Virus record (IMG/VR): IMGVR_UViG_2534681773_000020
Reading direction: 5' to 3' (one strand)
Length of the DNA stretch: 20,815 nucleotides
Origin: a virus
Taxonomy: Duplodnaviria; Heunggongvirae; Uroviricota; Caudoviricetes
Below, piece by piece: positions 4,529-20,013 of the stretch; the first letter of the stretch is position 1; every line of letters starts with the position of its first letter. Below the pieces are notes generated by a model. The model made no database searches. It was given only the letters and a program-made list of their open reading frames with translations, and was not told the origin of the DNA. The translations under genes were made by a program, and so were the position numbers.

Positions 4529-4586
4529 AAAAAGGGCGGCAGAGCAGTCACGGAGTAAAACTGATACCGCCAAACGTCACCAGAAA
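4529..4586 (-). ncRNA. dicF: DicF-like small regulatory RNA (about 53 nt plus U-tract)
   Basis: Reverse complement of 4534-4586 reads TTTCTGGTGACGTTTGGCGGTATCAGTTTTACTCCGTGACTGCTCTGCCGCCC followed by TTTTT, matching the recalled E. coli DicF sequence; located between upstream ORF and dicB as in the Qin dicB operon. Confidence 0.6.
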
Positions 4587-11140: not shown

Positions 11141-12010
11141 ATGACCACTATTACCAAAGAACGTATTGAATTGTTCATTAAAAATCCGCTTGAAAACGGG
11201 CTTACCCGTGGTGAACAAATGGAACTGGCACGGATTGCGCTGGCATCGCTGGAAGCAGAGCCGGTGGCAAAGATTATAGCTCATTACCCATTAGGGGTTG
11301 ACGTAGGCAAACAAAAATTTGTACAGGCCATTAGAGAGCTTCCTGACTTTGGCGGATATCTATTTGCCGCCCCTCCAGCGCCGATAGTGCCGGAAGAAAT
11401 GTATTGGCAGGATGCGCCAGTTGAAGGCAGCAGCAAAGCGGCTGCATACGCTACAGGCTGGAACGATTGCCGCGAAGCCATGTTTCAGTCCGGAAACTTT
11501 CGGGAAAATAAAGATTCGTCAACCAATAATTTTCGGAAAATCCCGGAAGCGTCAACCAGCTCTCCGGTAACTCCGGCTCTTCTGCCTGGTGGTTTCACCA
11601 TTGAGGAGGCGAAGGAATTACATGAAGACCTGGCACGCAGCCACATAAGCAAGGCCTTAAGTGGCGAAAAGATGAAAAAGAAAGATCGCGATGCTGATTT
11701 GCGCTGGATTCATGGCGTTATAGTTCAGGCAGCGTGGTTTGTAAAAGCATCACTGGAGCAGAATGCACTATCGGGCAACTATCCGGTAACTCCGGATAGT
11801 TGGATAAGCTGTAGTGAGCGAATGCCGGATACCAAAACAGCCGTTCTTGTTGCCAGGGATTTTGGCAGGAAAGGTGACTGGCGAATGAAATGGGCGACTT
11901 ACATCCCGGGGCATCCTGACGCTAATGATGGGTGGATAATACCTGGTGCGTCGTGGATACCATCACACTGGATGCCTCTACCAGAACCGCCGCAGGAGGT
12001 GCGCCAATGA
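11141..12010 (+). CDS. DUF551 domain-containing phage protein (289 aa)
   Basis: AAGGAG SD 6 nt upstream; C-terminal WIIPGASWIPSHWMPLPEPP resembles the DUF551 signature seen in nin-region proteins. Confidence 0.7.
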   Translation: MTTITKERIELFIKNPLENGLTRGEQMELARIALASLEAEPVAKIIAHYPLGVDVGKQKFVQAIRELPDFGGYLFAAPPAPIVPEEMYWQDAPVEGSSKAAAYATGWNDCREAMFQSGNFRENKDSSTNNFRKIPEASTSSPVTPALLPGGFTIEEAKELHEDLARSHISKALSGEKMKKKDRDADLRWIHGVIVQAAWFVKASLEQNALSGNYPVTPDSWISCSERMPDTKTAVLVARDFGRKGDWRMKWATYIPGHPDANDGWIIPGASWIPSHWMPLPEPPQEVRQ

Positions 12011-12084
12011 ACTGGCCTGAAGCATTTGCAATTACAGGCGTTGCTATGGCTATCGCTTTTTTAGTATATGTTATTTGTCGGTGA
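12007..12084 (+). CDS. Tiny hydrophobic ORF (25 aa, MNWPEAFAITGVAMAIAFLVYVICR), putative small membrane peptide
   Basis: ATGA start-stop overlap with DUF551 gene; single predicted TM helix; not in the ORF track because under 60 aa. Confidence 0.3.
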   Translation: MNWPEAFAITGVAMAIAFLVYVICR

Positions 12085-12125
12085 GGGTAAAAACGTTCGC
12101 CGGGATTAACACCAAAGGAGGGAAT

Positions 12126-12230
12126 ATGTCGGATGATATATCACTGGCAATGGAAGGTGCGCTGGCTGTTGTTGCTGTTGTGGGCGTTTACTGCCTGGTT
12201 GTGTTTTTGATGGATCGACTAGGGAACTGA
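12126..12230 (+). CDS. Tiny hydrophobic ORF (34 aa, MSDDISLAMEGALAVVAVVGVYCLVVFLMDRLGN), putative small membrane peptide
   Basis: Strong SD AAGGAGGG 5 nt upstream; one TM helix; followed by 22-bp perfect palindrome. Confidence 0.45.
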   Translation: MSDDISLAMEGALAVVAVVGVYCLVVFLMDRLGN

Positions 12231-12238
12231 ATTCATTA

Positions 12239-12475
12239 CGATATGGGAATTCCCATATCGGGTAAAAACGGTTTGCGGTAAAGCGAGAGTTAAGTAGAAT
12301 TGCTGCGGGTGCTTGAGGCTGTCTGCCTCGGGCATGCCACCGTAAGGCAGACAGAGAAAAGCCCCAGTTAACATTACGCGTCCTGCAAGACGCTTAACAT
12401 TAATCTGAGGCCCAATCTATGCTTCACAAACGTAGGTTAGCCTCTTACGCGCCGAAAGGCAAGGAGAAGCAGGCT
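12239..12475. promoter_or_regulatory. Structured leader/regulatory region upstream of hok-like toxin (candidate mok-leader and antisense Sok-like RNA region)
   Basis: 22-bp perfect palindrome CGATATGGGAATTCCCATATCG (12239-12260); 10-bp inverted repeat CTGTCTGCCT/AGGCAGACAG (about 12319-12354); direct repeat TTAACATTA x2 flanking GCGTC/GACGC hairpin (about 12368-12402). Confidence 0.4.
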
Positions 12476-12631
12476 ATGAAGCAGCAAAAGGCGATGTTAA
12501 TCGCCCTGATCGTCATCTGTTTAACCGTCATAGTGACGGCACTGGTAACGAGGAAAGACCTCTGCGAGGTACGAATCCGAACCGGCCAGACGGAGGTCGC
12601 TGTCTTCACAGCTTACGAACCTGAGGAGTAA
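12476..12631 (+). CDS. hokD: Hok/Gef-family type I toxin (51 aa)
   Basis: MKQQKAMLIALIVICLTVIVTALVTRKDLCEVRIRTGQTEVAVFTAYEPEE matches the Hok family signature and the recalled HokD/RelF sequence; AAGGAGAAG SD; in-frame upstream extension from 12419 may correspond to a mok-like frame. Confidence 0.8.
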   Translation: MKQQKAMLIALIVICLTVIVTALVTRKDLCEVRIRTGQTEVAVFTAYEPEE

Positions 12632-12700
12632 GAGACCAGGCGGGGGAGAAATCCCTCGCCACCTCTGATGTGTCAGGCATCCTCAACGCACCCGCACTTA

Positions 12701-12727
12701 ACCCGCTTCGGCGGGTTTTGTTTTTTC
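12701..12727 (+). terminator. Intrinsic terminator after hok
   Basis: AACCCGC-TTCG-GCGGGTT stem-loop followed by TTTTGTTTTTT. Confidence 0.6.
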
Positions 12728-12798
12728 CTGGCATTCTGGTTTACAATTCGCACGTCAGCCTGAACACCTGACACCTGCTGCGCCAGCAGAGAAAACAG

Positions 12799-13071
12799 AT
12801 GGTGCACAAAACCAAATTTCACAATTCTGATACCGACCTTGCCATCCGGCATGGGCGGCGTTCACACGCATTTAAAACCGACTGGTACCAACACCCACCA
12901 TGTACTGAAGAACAGGCCGAATGGCTAATTCATAACTACCGCAGACGCGGATACGAGATTAAGAAAGCCCTCAGCCTCGATTATCGTCACTGGATAATCT
13001 ATGTCAGGCTCCCTTATTCCGAACGCCCACCGCGTCCGTCCCGCACATTCCAGCAACGCATCTGGAGGTAA
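12799..13071 (+). CDS. Hypothetical protein (90 aa), Rem-like position
   Basis: ORF between hok and DUF968 gene, same arrangement as rem between hokD and ydfU in Qin; weak SD. Confidence 0.5.
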   Translation: MVHKTKFHNSDTDLAIRHGRRSHAFKTDWYQHPPCTEEQAEWLIHNYRRRGYEIKKALSLDYRHWIIYVRLPYSERPPRPSRTFQQRIWR

Positions 13072-13072
13072 C

Positions 13073-14128
13073 GTGCGGGTATTACTTCGACCTGTTCCGG
13101 TACCGGAACTTGGGCTGGTGGTGCTAAAACCGGGCCGTGAATCCATGCAGGTATTTCATAACCCTCGAGTTCTGGTGGAGCCGGAACCGAAAAGCATGCG
13201 CGGTCTGCCGTCCGGAGTCGTTCCTGCTGTTCGCCAGCCGCTGGCGGAGGATAAATCATTACTGCCATTTTTCAGCGATGAGCGGGTGATTCGTGCTGCT
13301 GGTGGTGCTGGTGCATTGTCTGACTGGCTGTTACGCCACATTAAATCCTGCCAGTGGCCTCATGGTGACTACCATCACAGTGAAACCGTCATACATCGTT
13401 ACGGTACCGGCGCGATGGTGTTGTGCTGGCACTGCGACAACCAGCTGCGTAACCAGACTTCCGAATCACTCGGGCAGCTTGCTCACCAAAACCTGTCAGC
13501 ATGGATGATTGATGTCATCCGCCACGCAATGAATGGCACGCAGGAGCGGGAATTATCGCTGGCTGAATTATCCTGGTGGGCAACCATAAATAACGTAGCG
13601 GACGCACTACCGGAGACGGTGTTACGTCGTTCACTGGGATTACGCGCGGAAAAAATTCGCTCAGTATACCGCGAGAGCGACATCGTGCCGGGAGAGCAGA
13701 CCGCCACCAGCATGCTGAAGCAGCGCACAAAAAATATTGCGCTACTGCCTCACGCCCACCAGCAAAACCCGCCACAGGAAAAGACGGTGGTAAGCATTGC
13801 CGTTGATCCGGAGTCACCGGCTCAGTATCTCCAGCGCCAGAAACCACGACGGGAAGAGATGCCTGTATACACGCGTTGGGTAAAAACGCAGAAATGCATG
13901 ACGTGTGGTAATCAGGCAGATGATCCGCATCACATCATTGGTCATGGACTGGGAGGGATGGGAACAAAGGCTGATGATTTGTTTGTTATTCCGCTGTGCC
14001 GTAAATGCCATAGCGAACTACACGCCGGGGTAAAAGATTTTGAAGAAAAACACGGCAGCCAGCTGTTGTTGCTGATTCGTTTTTTAATGCACGCGAGAAA
14101 TTCGGGTGTCCTGAAGTGGAAAGCATGA
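13073..14128 (+). CDS. DUF968 (YdfU-like) protein with C-terminal Cys/His HNH-like zinc motif
   Basis: GTG at 13073 with GGAGG 4 nt upstream, immediately after previous stop (ORF track ATG alternative 13001); C-terminal CMTCGNQADDPHHIIGHGLGGMGTKADDLFVIPLCRKCHSELH. Confidence 0.65.
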   Translation: MRVLLRPVPVPELGLVVLKPGRESMQVFHNPRVLVEPEPKSMRGLPSGVVPAVRQPLAEDKSLLPFFSDERVIRAAGGAGALSDWLLRHIKSCQWPHGDYHHSETVIHRYGTGAMVLCWHCDNQLRNQTSESLGQLAHQNLSAWMIDVIRHAMNGTQERELSLAELSWWATINNVADALPETVLRRSLGLRAEKIRSVYRESDIVPGEQTATSMLKQRTKNIALLPHAHQQNPPQEKTVVSIAVDPESPAQYLQRQKPRREEMPVYTRWVKTQKCMTCGNQADDPHHIIGHGLGGMGTKADDLFVIPLCRKCHSELHAGVKDFEEKHGSQLLLLIRFLMHARNSGVLKWKA

Positions 14129-16723: not shown

Positions 16724-16799
16724 GGCCCTTTAGCTCAGTGGTGAGAGCGAGCGACTCATAATCGCCAGGTCGCTGGTTCAAATCCAGCAAGGGCCACCA
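16724..16799 (+). tRNA. ileZ: tRNA with anticodon CAT (Ile2 lysidine-type or Met; resembles ileX/ileZ class), CCA encoded
   Basis: Cloverleaf folded by hand: acceptor GGCCCTT/AAGGGCC, D-stem GCTC/GAGC, anticodon loop CTCATAA, T-arm GCTGG-TTCAAAT-CCAGC. Confidence 0.85.
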
Positions 16800-16899
16800 T
16801 CACAAACCGCCATTAGCTTATCAGGAAGAGCAGACGACACCATAACAGGGTTGTTGGTGCGGGGGCGGGTCCCCGATGGCGGTCCATTATCGGTATTCT

Positions 16900-16976
16900 G
16901 CGTTGTTAGCTCAGCCGGACAGAGCAATTGCCTTCTAAGCAATCGGTCAGTGGTTCGACTCCACTACAACGCGCCA
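16900..16976 (+). tRNA. argO: tRNA-Arg (anticodon TCT), CCA encoded
   Basis: Acceptor GCGTTGT/ACAACGC, D-stem GCTC/GAGC, anticodon stem ATTGC/GCAAT with loop CTTCTAA, T-arm AGTGG-TTCGACT-CCACT. Confidence 0.85.
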
Positions 16977-16988
16977 CACTTATTTTCC

Positions 16989-17016
16989 AGGCTCGCTTCG
17001 GCGGGCCTTTTTTGTA
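16989..17016 (+). terminator. Intrinsic terminator after tRNA-Arg
   Basis: GGCTCGC-TTCG-GCGGGCC hairpin followed by TTTTTTG. Confidence 0.5.
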
Positions 17017-17145
17017 TCTGCGCCACGCCCGGCGCATATCAACCACAGAGCCTTTCGGGGGTGAGCTTACGGAGTGGTCAGTGTGACTTTCTCTGTGGGC
17101 AGATCGCTCCCGGGCGTTGGCTCACCCACCCAAAGGAACGTCACG

Positions 17146-17577
17146 ATGTTTGGAATCTTCAAAAAGAAAACCCGCAGAGCGGCAGCGGAAATTAAAAAGT
17201 TTGAGAAACGCGATCTGGCACAGGCGGTGATTAACGCTGCATACCTGGTGGCCTATGCAGATGGTGAATGCGAGGCATCCGAGAAAGCGAAGATCGAACA
17301 GGTCTTACGTAATCAGCCTGCGTTGTCTGCGTTTACCTCGGAAATTAATGCGATTAGCGCAACCATTATCGGTCAGCTGGATACCAATTTTAAAATTGGT
17401 CGTCGTGCCGCGTTACGCGAGATTGAGGATGTGAAACACGATACGCGTGAAGCGGAAGATGTGCTGGATGTGGCGGTGGCCATTGCGGAGGCAGACGGCG
17501 AAATTGAGCCGGAAGAGCGCAAGGTGCTGGAAGAGATTGCCGGTGTTCTGGGTCTTCGTCTGGAGAATCACCTGTGA
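17146..17577 (+). CDS. TerB-like (tellurite-resistance TerB fold) protein, 143 aa
   Basis: Paired acidic motifs YADGECEASEKAKIEQVL and EADGEIEPEERKVLEEIAGVLGL typical of TerB domains; ATG 17146 with AAGGA upstream. Confidence 0.65.
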   Translation: MFGIFKKKTRRAAAEIKKFEKRDLAQAVINAAYLVAYADGECEASEKAKIEQVLRNQPALSAFTSEINAISATIIGQLDTNFKIGRRAALREIEDVKHDTREAEDVLDVAVAIAEADGEIEPEERKVLEEIAGVLGLRLENHL

Positions 17578-17741
17578 CGGTAAAACTGCGCCTGGCTGTG
17601 GCTGCACTCCTGCTGTTTCTGGTGGTGATGGTGGATTTCACCAGCAGAATCATGTCGGTGCTGGCGGATGGGGTGCTGGTCTGCGGCATTGTGGTATTGC
17701 TGTGGCCGGTGATAAAAAGAAACAGCCTGCATAATGCTTGA
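17574..17741 (+). CDS. Small two-helix membrane ORF (55 aa) coupled to TerB-like gene
   Basis: GTG at 17574 overlaps TerB-like stop (GTGA); translation VTVKLRLAVAALLLFLVVMVDFTSRIMSVLADGVLVCGIVVLLWPVIKRNSLHNA is strongly hydrophobic. Confidence 0.4.
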   Translation: MTVKLRLAVAALLLFLVVMVDFTSRIMSVLADGVLVCGIVVLLWPVIKRNSLHNA

Positions 17742-17922
17742 TTTTTTTATTTGCTGTTTATTAAAAACACTTCTGCATGGTGAATCCCCCTGTGCGGAGG
17801 GGCGACTGGTGTAGGTAGCATTTATTATGTTATAGGCAAGCCGACGCGGGTTCAGTGACACCGGCTGAATTCACCGGGAGGCACCCGGCACCATGCAAGA
17901 AAAAGAATGTGTATGCAAACAT

Positions 17923-17948
17923 GCCCCTCTCCGGAGGGGCATTTTTTA
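17923..17948 (+). terminator. Intrinsic terminator
   Basis: GCCCCTC-TCCG-GAGGGGC stem-loop followed by ATTTTTTAT. Confidence 0.55.
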
Positions 17949-18162
17949 TGGGTAAAAAATGCCCGAATGGGTTCGGGCAATAGCATGAGATACTGATATT
18001 GTTGTGTTGTTATCGTGTGGATTTTAACCAGGGTTTATCAGGCTGCGCAACTGCGTGGCCTTTTTTCATTTCTTGGGCTGTAGTCCCCGTGTGTCATTCA
18101 GGCTTCCGGACTACAGCCCACTCCATATCTGATTTAATACACTATCCCGGCCGGGAGGAATA

Positions 18163-20013
18163 ATGACATTTAAACATTATGATGTTGTCAGGGCGGCGTC
18201 GCCGTCAGACCTTGCGGAAAAGCTGACACACAAACTGAAAGAGGGCTGGCAGCCGTTTGGTAGTCCGGTGGCCATAACCCCTTATACCCTGATGCAGGCG
18301 ATTACAGCAGAAGGTGATGTGGTGGTCAGTGGTGCAACTGAGCCGGATTGGTACTACGTCATCGTACTGGCCGGGCAATCCAATGCCATGGCTTACGGTG
18401 AAGGGCTTCCGCTGCCGGATTCATACGATGCTCCGGATCCGCGCATTAAACAGCTGGCGCGCCGCAGTACAGTTACGCCGGGTGGGGCTGCCTGCAGATA
18501 TAACGATATTATTCCGGCCGACCACTGCCTGCATGATGTGCAGGATATGAGTACGCTGAATCATCCGAAGGCAGACCTGAGCAAAGGGCAGTACGGCTGT
18601 GTCGGCCAGGGCTTACATATTGCCAAAAAACTGCTTCCGTATATCCCGAATAACGCGGGGATCCTGCTGGTACCATGCTGTCGTGGTGGTTCGGCATTCA
18701 CCCAGGGCGCGGAGGGGACATTCAGTGCGGACGCGGGGGCCAGCCAGGATTCGGCACGCTGGGGTGTGGGTAAACCGTTATATCAGGACCTGATTGCGCG
18801 CACCAAAGCTGCATTACAGAAGAACCCGAAAAATGTGTTGCTGGCGGTGTGCTGGATGCAGGGAGAGTTTGACATGAGCGCCGCCACCCACGCACAGCAA
18901 CCTGCGCTGTTTACAGCCATGCTGACACAGTTTCGTGTTGACCTCTCCGTGTTTAACGCGCAGTGCCATGGTGGCAGTGCTGCAGATGTGCCGTGGATTT
19001 GTGGTGACACGACGTATTACTGGAAAAATACATACGCTACCCAGTACGACACCGTGTACGGCGGGTATAAAAACAGGGAGAGTGAGGGCGTTTATTTTGT
19101 GCCCTTCATGACAGACGGTAACGGCGTCAATACCGCCACTAACGCGCCGGCAGAAGATCCGGATATTCCGGCATCAGGATATTACGGTGCGGCATCGAGA
19201 ACGAATGGAAACCAGGTATCATCAAACCGCCCGACACATTTCAGTTCATGGGCGCGCAGGAGCATTATTCCGGATCGTCTGGCAACCGCTATTCTGAACG
19301 CAGCCGGGCGCACCTCAGCCTTCATCAGTGGTAAGGCACCGGAAATCAAACCCTCGCCCGGCGGCAACACGCCATCGGGTCCGTCTGCAGATACGTCCGT
19401 TCGCACAATCTCCCTGCTGCCGACAGCCGGAGAGGCTGCTGCGCAGGGCTGGACCATTAAGGACGGCGGAATTCAGTTGTCGGGTGGTGTATTTAAGATC
19501 GCCAAGCAGAGCAATAAAACCTGGTCCCTGACGCATCCGGTGGATGACGCAATTACCCTGCTGACACAGGGCGGCAGACTGACCTGTAAGTTCCGCCTGT
19601 CAGGCGCGCTGACCAACAATCAGTTCGGGCTGGGGATTTATCTGTATACGGATGCTCCCGTTCCTGATGGTGTGGCGATGACGGGTACCGGTAATCCGTT
19701 CCTGATGTCGTACTTCACTCAGACCACTGACGGCAGAGTGAATCTGATGCATCACAGGAAAGCCGGAAACACGAAGCTGGGGGAGTTCGGCGATTACGGT
19801 AACGACTGGCAGACGCTGGAGCTGGTGTTCACCGCCGGCAGTGCCACGGTTACTCCGAAACTGAATGGAGTGGCTGGCCCGGCATTCCAGGTCATAAAAG
19901 ACAGTCTGACACTGGGGCTGAATGCGCTGACGCTGACGGATATTACCAAAAATGCAGCGTATGGCGTTGAGATAGAAAGTCTGGTGCTGGAGATAAATGC
20001 ACCGGCAGCATAA
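18163..20013 (+). CDS. nanS-p: Prophage sialate 9-O-acetylesterase (NanS-p type; N-terminal DUF1737-like region plus SGNH/SASA esterase domain)
   Basis: 616 aa; GGGAGGAA SD; N-terminus MTFKHYDVVRAASPSDLAEKL; SASA block VLAGQSNAMAYGEG; the position downstream of the late tRNAs is where Stx phages carry this gene. Confidence 0.8.
   Translation: MTFKHYDVVRAASPSDLAEKLTHKLKEGWQPFGSPVAITPYTLMQAITAEGDVVVSGATEPDWYYVIVLAGQSNAMAYGEGLPLPDSYDAPDPRIKQLARRSTVTPGGAACRYNDIIPADHCLHDVQDMSTLNHPKADLSKGQYGCVGQGLHIAKKLLPYIPNNAGILLVPCCRGGSAFTQGAEGTFSADAGASQDSARWGVGKPLYQDLIARTKAALQKNPKNVLLAVCWMQGEFDMSAATHAQQPALFTAMLTQFRVDLSVFNAQCHGGSAADVPWICGDTTYYWKNTYATQYDTVYGGYKNRESEGVYFVPFMTDGNGVNTATNAPAEDPDIPASGYYGAASRTNGNQVSSNRPTHFSSWARRSIIPDRLATAILNAAGRTSAFISGKAPEIKPSPGGNTPSGPSADTSVRTISLLPTAGEAAAQGWTIKDGGIQLSGGVFKIAKQSNKTWSLTHPVDDAITLLTQGGRLTCKFRLSGALTNNQFGLGIYLYTDAPVPDGVAMTGTGNPFLMSYFTQTTDGRVNLMHHRKAGNTKLGEFGDYGNDWQTLELVFTAGSATVTPKLNGVAGPAFQVIKDSLTLGLNALTLTDITKNAAYGVEIESLVLEINAPAA

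Follow-up and report, generated by a model that had tools for sequence, protein, structure and literature searches.

The locus at positions 12239-12727 is almost certainly a complete hok/sok cassette, a toxin–antitoxin pair of type I, in a lambda-like E. coli prophage, a judgement that covers its identification and its mechanism jointly. It lies in a stretch of 20,815 nt (the window), the coordinates of which are used throughout. The cassette is already known: it belongs to an annotated, previously studied family and is the full-length counterpart of the hokD of E. coli K-12. A reading made from the letters of the DNA (the sequence-only reading) had recognised a Hok/Gef type I toxin locus here, and this identification is confirmed by the matches of the toxin to Pfam HOK_GEF and PHROG 251 and of the leader to Rfam RF01794. 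As a discovery the locus carries small weight, since this is a textbook type I toxin–antitoxin family and experiments have been published on a near-identical copy from another prophage. Its value is that of a clean reference, in which all regulatory elements stand in one well-conserved stretch and the truncated hokD of K-12 can be seen as it was before the insertion of relBE.

Prophage context and prevalence

The window corresponds to the early and nin part of a lambda-like prophage of E. coli. Among its genes are those for an integrase and an exonuclease, DicF (4534-4585, minus strand) together with dicB, a CI/Cro pair and genes for replication. Next in order are a DUF551 gene, the hok/sok locus, DUF968, RusA, a DNA methyltransferase and two tRNAs. 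The segment past the methyltransferase (16724-18015) holds these tRNAs, with CAT and TCT anticodons, and then two small RNAs that stand back to back: STnc100 (17749-17953, plus strand) and AgvB (17954-18015, minus strand). A gene for a SASA-family esterase (18163-20013) is located at the end of the window, and on the plus strand between the small RNAs and this gene no ORF of at least 80 aa was found. None of the complete E. coli genomes holds the whole window in one piece (best match: 88% coverage, 96.6% identity), as expected because the prophage is a mosaic.

The hok/sok locus was searched as the 489-nt region 12239-12727 against 5426 complete E. coli genomes. It is matched in 4728 of them, and at least 80% of the region is present in 3862 of the matching genomes. 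In thousands of these genomes the CDS carries the RefSeq label 'type I toxin-antitoxin system toxin HokD'. About 100 deposited phages, Stx phages included, also contain the region, under the labels gef, host killer, MokW or HokD. The Sakai prophage Sp6 carries the entire region at 97% (96.9%) identity, together with the small ORFs and the palindrome that lie upstream.

The toxin gene and the mok frame

The toxin gene hok (12476-12631, plus strand) encodes 51 aa and is preceded by the Shine-Dalgarno sequence (SD) AGGAG at 12462-12466. Its product is 100% identical to K-12 HokD over 51 aa, the identical CDS being named hokD in RefSeq, and 92% identical to HokW. The ORF matches the complete Pfam model PF01848 HOK_GEF (positions 1-42 of 42) with 82.9 bits (cut-off 22, E 1.2e-23), and PHROG 251 'MokW-like host killing' with an E of 2.8e-33. 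The sequence-only reading had stated that a toxin ORF disrupted in related prophages would tell against it; in each of the 28 related loci that were inspected, the hok ORF is undamaged.

An in-frame, mok-like extension had also been read upstream from 12419, and it is indeed present. The ATG at 12419 opens a frame of 70 codons in frame with hok (12419-12631, plus strand), with an SD (GAGG, 12407-12410) 8 nt upstream of the ATG. The same frame is labelled 'MokC' in the Sp6 prophage of EHEC Sakai, and its start codon is kept in 27 of the 28 loci. The distance between the mok and hok starts varies in the alignment (57 nt, 58 nt or 56 nt). With a spacing of 57 nt the two are in frame, as in the window and in the R1-type locus. 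With 58 nt there is a +1 overlap of about 68 codons, and with 56 nt the mok stop coincides with the hok start. The relative frame is variable in the family; the conserved feature is translation across the hok start and not the Mok protein itself.

The codon of Tyr47 in hok (TAC, 12614-12616) lies within TTACGAA (12612-12619), which is invariant in 28 of 28 aligned loci and contains TACG, the motif at which TadA performs A-to-I editing. According to a recent preprint, the hokD mRNA is edited so that a Cys required for a disulfide bond appears at this C-terminal position (bioRxiv 10.1101/2025.08.07.668861). A local hairpin of the TadA type was looked for around TACG 12614-12617, and the 31-nt fold is no better than that of shuffles.

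Promoter, ends and terminator of the hok mRNA

The predicted hok promoter (12272-12300, plus strand) combines a weak -35 (TTTGCG at 12272-12277 or TTGCGG at 12273-12278) with the -10 TAGAAT at 12295-12300. This -10 is conserved as TAGAAT, TATAAT, TACAAT or TAGTAT in 27 of the 28 aligned loci, stands at a fixed distance from the GGGTGC 5' end and is located 6 nt upstream of the start of the RF01794 model. The Rfam search, a check that the sequence-only reading had proposed, matched RF01794 on the hok strand at 12307-12481 with 116.2 bits (gathering score 59; model positions 1-157 of 157). From the conserved -10 and the model start, the 5' end of the mRNA is placed at about 12307, which gives a leader of about 169 nt up to the hok AUG. 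The 230-nt leader proposed earlier is thus too long. The full-length hok mRNA is predicted to measure about 418 nt (12307-12724, plus strand), running from the 5' end GGGUGCUUGAGG through the terminator.

RF01794 bears the name 'sok'. Its match lies on the hok-encoding strand and ends at the hok start, so that the family models the 5' leader of the hok mRNA and not the antisense RNA. This calls for caution in annotation: automatic use of RF01794 would assign 'sok' to the wrong strand with an incorrect length, and leaves the antitoxin RNA itself unannotated on the opposite strand.

At the 3' end a terminator scan found the Rho-independent terminator of the hok mRNA (12700-12727, plus strand), in which a stem at 12700-12717 is followed by TTGTTTTTTC, a T-run; it had rightly been described as a clean terminator. 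The module that is conserved across genera begins with the -10, at about 12293, and reaches as far as 12693, where the fold-back inhibitory element (fbi) ends.

The generic consensus scan for promoters and terminators covered 11900-12900. The hok terminator was the only one reported, and neither of the two candidate promoters (for hok and for the antisense RNA Sok) was called. Both were missed because each has one weak hexamer, and the comparative alignment was relied on instead. A promoter-like site that the generic scan reported on the plus strand (12394-12423) was rejected, as it falls within the transcribed hok mRNA and shows no conservation as a promoter.

A permissive Rfam search also matched the hok 3' UTR (12640-12721, plus strand) to isrK, a family of Salmonella prophage sRNAs, with 27 bits, where the gathering score is 50; over the short stretches that were searched, E was about 2e-4 to 8e-4. 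Homology to isrK is unconvincing: the match is sub-threshold and probably reflects a shared pattern of two hairpins followed by a terminator.

RNA elements and the two-state switch

The analysis shows all sequence elements of the locus, both predicted states of the hok mRNA and their conservation. The full-length mRNA (12307-12724) has a minimum free energy (MFE) of -178.9 kcal/mol, with a z-score of -8.75 against shuffles. At its 5' end lies tac, the translational activator (12307-12318, plus strand), for which three different partners are predicted. In the nascent RNA it pairs with 12325-12335 in a metastable hairpin; the first 30 nt are predicted to sequester tac in this way with -18.8 kcal/mol. 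In the full-length MFE fold, 12 pairs form between tac (12307-12318) and fbi (CCUCAACGCACCC, 12681-12693, plus strand), the complementarity of which was also seen as inverted repeats. In that same fold ucb (12361-12367) pairs with 12405-12411, the mok SD region. When the RNA is cut at 12672 the predicted fold instead pairs 12307-12314 with 12359-12365 (tac-ucb) and GAGGC (12407-12411) with GCCUC (12440-12444), the mok SD-dcb pairing. The predicted folds match both known states of hok mRNA as they were published for R1 (PMC9841398). The fold-back inhibition proposed by the sequence-only reading is thereby supported by the predicted tac-fbi pairing. However, it had been placed within the leader, and the predicted pairing is a long-range one between the 5' and 3' ends (12307-12318 with 12681-12693).

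The remaining elements lie between these two ends. The 5' stem-loop (12319-12354, plus strand; helix 2) is the long inverted repeat that had been noticed earlier, and its arms were recovered at 12308-12328 and 12345-12365. This helix is 86.4% paired in the relatives, with 3 pairs changed on both sides. The ucb or anti-SD box (12358-12367, plus strand) has two predicted partners: in the full-length RNA the mok SD region (12405-12411), and in the shortened one tac. Its helix with the mok SD (helix 4) is 88.7% paired over the 28 loci, with 5 pairs changed on both sides. The Sok-target hairpin of the activated RNA (12407-12444, plus strand) is built from the mok SD (GAGGC, 12407-12411) and dcb (GCCUC, 12440-12444) and exposes a loop at 12422-12430. 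It is also part of the Rfam RF01794 consensus structure, and its five core pairs are invariant across the aligned loci. Just upstream of the hok SD a small tetraloop hairpin, GCC-GAAA-GGC (12451-12460, plus strand), overlaps the Sok -35 on the other strand. This hairpin (helix 7) is 100% paired; its closing pair changes from A-U to G-C in 10 sequences, and its loop in relatives is GAAA, GUAA or UUCG. The hairpin in the 3' UTR (12640-12661, plus strand; helices 16 and 17) is 94-98% paired and may be the protective 3' stem-loop of the processed RNA, judging from the mutagenesis of R1 (PMC9841398).

The aligned loci, 28 distinct ones, come from Escherichia, Shigella, Kluyvera, Pseudocitrobacter, Erwinia and further Enterobacteriaceae, with 69-98% identity to the window, and conservation across genera stops exactly at the end of fbi. 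Standard pairs occupy 85.0% of cells for the full-length structure and 89.5% for the shortened one, against only 37-46% when the partners are slid by 1-3 columns; these percentages are inflated relative to the slid controls because the tested structures were taken from folds of the window itself. Pairs changed on both sides number 37 (full-length) and 22 (shortened), counts that were reached by 0 of 500 and 1 of 500 shuffles, respectively. The tac-fbi helix is 94.6% paired in the 28 loci and has one compensatory pair (G-C to A-U in 5), and the tac-ucb helix is 97.9% paired. When predicted structures and conservation are taken together, the helices of the alternative pairings are 88.7%, 97.9% and 79.3% paired in the relatives. 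The tac-ucb and SD-dcb helices are invariant and hence uninformative for covariation. As predicted structures, both RNA states hold up across the 28 loci of several genera.

The antisense Sok RNA

The predicted Sok promoter (12434-12462, minus strand) has the -35 TTGCCT at 12462-12457 and the -10 TAACCT at 12439-12434. The sequence-only reading had suggested a promoter prediction on the minus strand and held that the lack of an antisense promoter would speak against it. The generic scan indeed called none there; the comparative alignment, however, gave TTGCCT-17 nt-TAACCT, and a predicted promoter matching that of Sp5 sokW is thus present on the minus strand. Its hexamers and spacing are identical to those of sokW, and it occupies the same position as in the R1-type plasmid locus (TTGCGC, 17 nt, TATCCT). 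The -10 TAACCT agrees with the consensus at 3 of 6 positions, which left it uncalled by a simple consensus scan. This weak -10 is the main weakness of the argument for Sok, which is made from sequence only.

The predicted Sok RNA (12353-12427, minus strand) would measure about 70-75 nt and start at about 12427, some 7 nt downstream of the -10. Its predicted fold, of -30.7 kcal/mol (z -4.82), leaves about 10 nt single-stranded as a 5' tail, which is followed by a long hairpin and the U-rich tail CUUUUCUCU. The RNA has complementarity to both the SD and the AUG of mok, and its 5' tail to the target loop and the mok AUG. A direct repeat, TTAACATTA, had been reported twice in the leader. Both copies are found (12368-12376 and 12394-12402), but their part is a different one: on the Sok strand they are the arms of the Sok terminator stem, 9 bp with two G.U pairs. 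On the hok strand these G.U positions become A.C mismatches, which makes the hairpin of the mRNA weaker than that of Sok. The proposal of an antisense, Sok-like RNA thus gains support from promoter hexamers and spacing identical to those of sokW and from the predicted 5' tail, hairpin and U-rich tail.

Proposed mechanism

In R1 (PMC9841398), and likewise in hokW-sokW (PMC8621323), Hok is toxic, the unstable Sok represses it and the mRNA is activated by 3' processing. For the window, the transcripts, 3' processing, cleavage by RNase III, toxicity and biological role are modelled on the R1 and Sp5 work and would take the following course. The weak hok promoter (-10 12295-12300) would yield a stable mRNA of about 418 nt. 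During its synthesis tac, at the 5' end, would be kept in a local hairpin. In the finished RNA tac would pair with fbi and ucb would cover the ribosome-binding site of mok, which would permit neither translation nor the binding of Sok. Slow trimming from the 3' end would then remove fbi, upon which tac pairs with ucb, and the mok ribosome-binding site would enter the dcb hairpin and become exposed. Ribosomes translating mok would cross the hok start and thereby allow the synthesis of Hok, a 51-aa inner-membrane peptide that would kill or lyse the cell.

Sok would act on the activated RNA. Short and unstable, it would be produced from the minus strand (about 12427 to 12353) and pair with the mok start region, thereby blocking translation and triggering cleavage. 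Hok would be made only once the synthesis of Sok stops. In a prophage this probably happens at induction, where Hok would aid lysis and phage release, by analogy with hokW-sokW. Loss of the element would be an alternative trigger.

The upstream palindrome and small ORFs

A perfect 22-bp palindrome with a central EcoRI site, CGATATGGGAATTCCCATATCG, is found at 12239-12260, after the end of a 34-aa ORF and before the hok promoter. It is single-copy in the window and was matched by 0 of 100 shuffles. As RNA it would form a 9-bp hairpin of -14.5 kcal/mol. The sequence-only reading was right about the palindrome but had counted it as part of the hok leader. With the 5' end at about 12307, the palindrome lies upstream of the promoter, outside the mRNA and outside the conserved hok/sok module. 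Instead of being a piece of hok/sok, it belongs to the upstream module or to the junction; candidate functions are the binding of a protein, RNA processing at the hairpin or the joining of modules. A function as terminator of upstream transcription was rejected, as there is no T-run on either strand.

That the palindrome is an integral regulatory part of the hok leader is highly improbable. Its perfection over 22 bp, its place about 12 bp upstream of the -35 and its strict conservation in the E. coli copies that carry it could be read that way. The stretch that contains it (12222-12275, 54 nt) occurs in 628 E. coli genomes, in 624 of them at 99% identity or more. The annotated feature beneath these matches, however, is the upstream small ORF, and the palindrome precedes the predicted start of hok transcription. 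Sp5 hokW-sokW lacks it, as do most phage copies (the matches of which begin at query positions 19-50) and all loci of other genera. Its exact core is missing from every locus but a near-identical E. coli one. A 22/23 blastn match in a Photorhabdus locus was treated as chance, as the exact core is absent there.

The tiny membrane ORFs that had been reported upstream, in the place of relBE, are indeed found: two small hydrophobic ORFs encode 25 aa (12007-12084, GRAVY 1.38) and 34 aa (12126-12230, GRAVY 1.32), each with a strong ribosome-binding site. The 25-aa ORF and the stop codon of the DUF551 gene overlap in an ATGA, so their translation may be coupled. The product of the 34-aa ORF is a hypothetical protein in RefSeq (WP_001278454.1) and is ECs_5710 in Sakai Sp6. 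Neither ORF has a Pfam, NCBIfam or solid PHROG match.

An 11-mer, GGGTAAAAACG, occurs three times in the window (0.01 copies expected). The copies at 12085-12095 and 12260-12270 directly follow the stop of the 25-aa ORF and the palindrome, respectively, and the third (13878-13888) lies inside the DUF968 coding sequence. A consistent role across the three copies was not found.

Biological role

What the cassette does for its prophage is suggested by the study of hokW-sokW in Sp5; it may help lysis, maintain the prophage or defend it against other phages. In Sp5 the toxin was shown to be toxic, and sokW RNA expressed from its own promoter protects. The sokW RNA was detected by northern blot, and mutation of its promoter abolished the antitoxic effect. 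Upon induction with mitomycin C sokW is lost and HokW is produced, and deletion of hokW-sokW lowered phage release about two-fold (PMC8621323).

Intact elements are no guarantee of activity: according to the introduction of the preprint, the chromosomal hokA, hokB and hokC had earlier been tested and displayed neither post-segregational killing nor a response to rifampicin (bioRxiv 10.1101/2025.08.07.668861). The locus might likewise be structurally intact and functionally silent, a passenger relic like those hok loci of the chromosome, with no killing and no benefit for the phage under natural conditions. The lineage does tolerate decay, given that K-12 hokD lost its entire leader, and both the hok and the Sok promoter are weak matches to the consensus. 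Such silence is nevertheless improbable here. All regulatory elements are present and conserved, with compensatory changes. None of the 28 loci has a broken hok ORF, and many E. coli genomes carry a near-identical copy of the region. Moreover, the hokW-sokW copy, which is about 93% identical, is active and affects both lysis and phage yield (PMC8621323). An active cassette is the preferred reading.

It is also rather unlikely that the main role of the cassette is defence, by abortive infection or by exclusion of phages that shut off host transcription, instead of the lysis or maintenance of its own prophage. According to the same preprint, hok is not enriched beside known defence systems (bioRxiv 10.1101/2025.08.07.668861). 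The only direct test of a prophage copy showed a positive effect on the release of the phage itself (PMC8621323), and nothing in the window bears on the question.

A speculative addition, held with little confidence, concerns the timing. The cassette is co-oriented with the early rightward transcription of the prophage, which makes read-through across it possible on induction. Such read-through transcripts might cross the cassette and silence Sok by collision with its promoter, which faces them, and the strictly conserved palindrome, as a processing or insulating hairpin, could set their 5' end. If true, this would explain why sokW RNA disappears in a RecA-dependent manner after mitomycin C, and hok/sok would be a lysis helper timed by induction.

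Comparison with known systems

The hok/sok (parB) system of plasmid R1 contains the same elements as the window: tac, the metastable hairpin, ucb, the mok SD, dcb, fbi and the terminator (PMC9841398). Its mok ATG likewise lies 57 nt in frame before hok, and its Sok promoter occupies the same place with a 17-nt spacer. R1 hok/sok is plasmid-borne, however, whereas the window's is prophage-borne, and the toxins share about 44% identity, a figure given for the close relative HokW (PMC8621323). The ucb/SD hairpin of the window, which equals the Sok terminator stem, also has an extra apical 16-18 nt or so in comparison to R1, hokC and the Rfam consensus, from which the predicted Sok length of about 70-75 nt results.

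The chromosomal hokC (gef)/mokC/sokC belongs to the same leader family. Its whole mRNA aligns with about 74% identity, and mok is in frame. It differs in its shorter Sok hairpin (gaps at alignment columns 90-107), its Sok -10 region and its toxin of 50 aa.

The hokW-sokW of Sakai prophage 5 (Sp5, the Stx2 phage VT2-Sakai) is also located in the nin region of a lambda-like prophage, and shares about 93% nucleotide identity with the window over 12263-12703. The Sok promoter hexamers and spacing, the hok -10, the 5' end and the 70-codon mok frame are the same. The last seven residues of the toxin are VDYESEK in HokW and TAYEPEE in the window. The sequence after fbi differs as well, the window having a K-12-type terminator hairpin that Sp5 lacks, and in Sp5 the upstream neighbours are different and the palindrome is missing.

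The hokD (relF) of the K-12 Qin prophage encodes the identical 51-aa protein, and its DNA has 3 mismatches to the window from 12462 to about 12726, a stretch that spans the hok SD, the ORF, the 3' hairpin, fbi and the terminator. Upstream of 12462 no homology to Qin was found in the alignment. K-12 hokD thus retains just the hok ribosome-binding site, ORF, 3' UTR and terminator, and is without the hok promoter, tac, ucb, the mok start, the Sok gene and most of the Sok promoter. It is co-transcribed from the relBE promoter as relBEF (PMC3598666), and an earlier publication describes how the insertion of relBE interrupted the ancestral frame of 70 codons (PMC6379469). The K-12 definition of hokD, as a gene downstream of relBE without a leader, mok or sok of its own, does not fit the window, which has the full leader and no relBE. 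The sequence-only reading had correctly noted this absence of relBE. Its implication that the arrangement is unusual was wrong: the complete form is common and the truncated K-12 Qin locus is the exception. The absence of relBE is the ancestral arrangement; the window represents the common complete form and Qin a derived exception.
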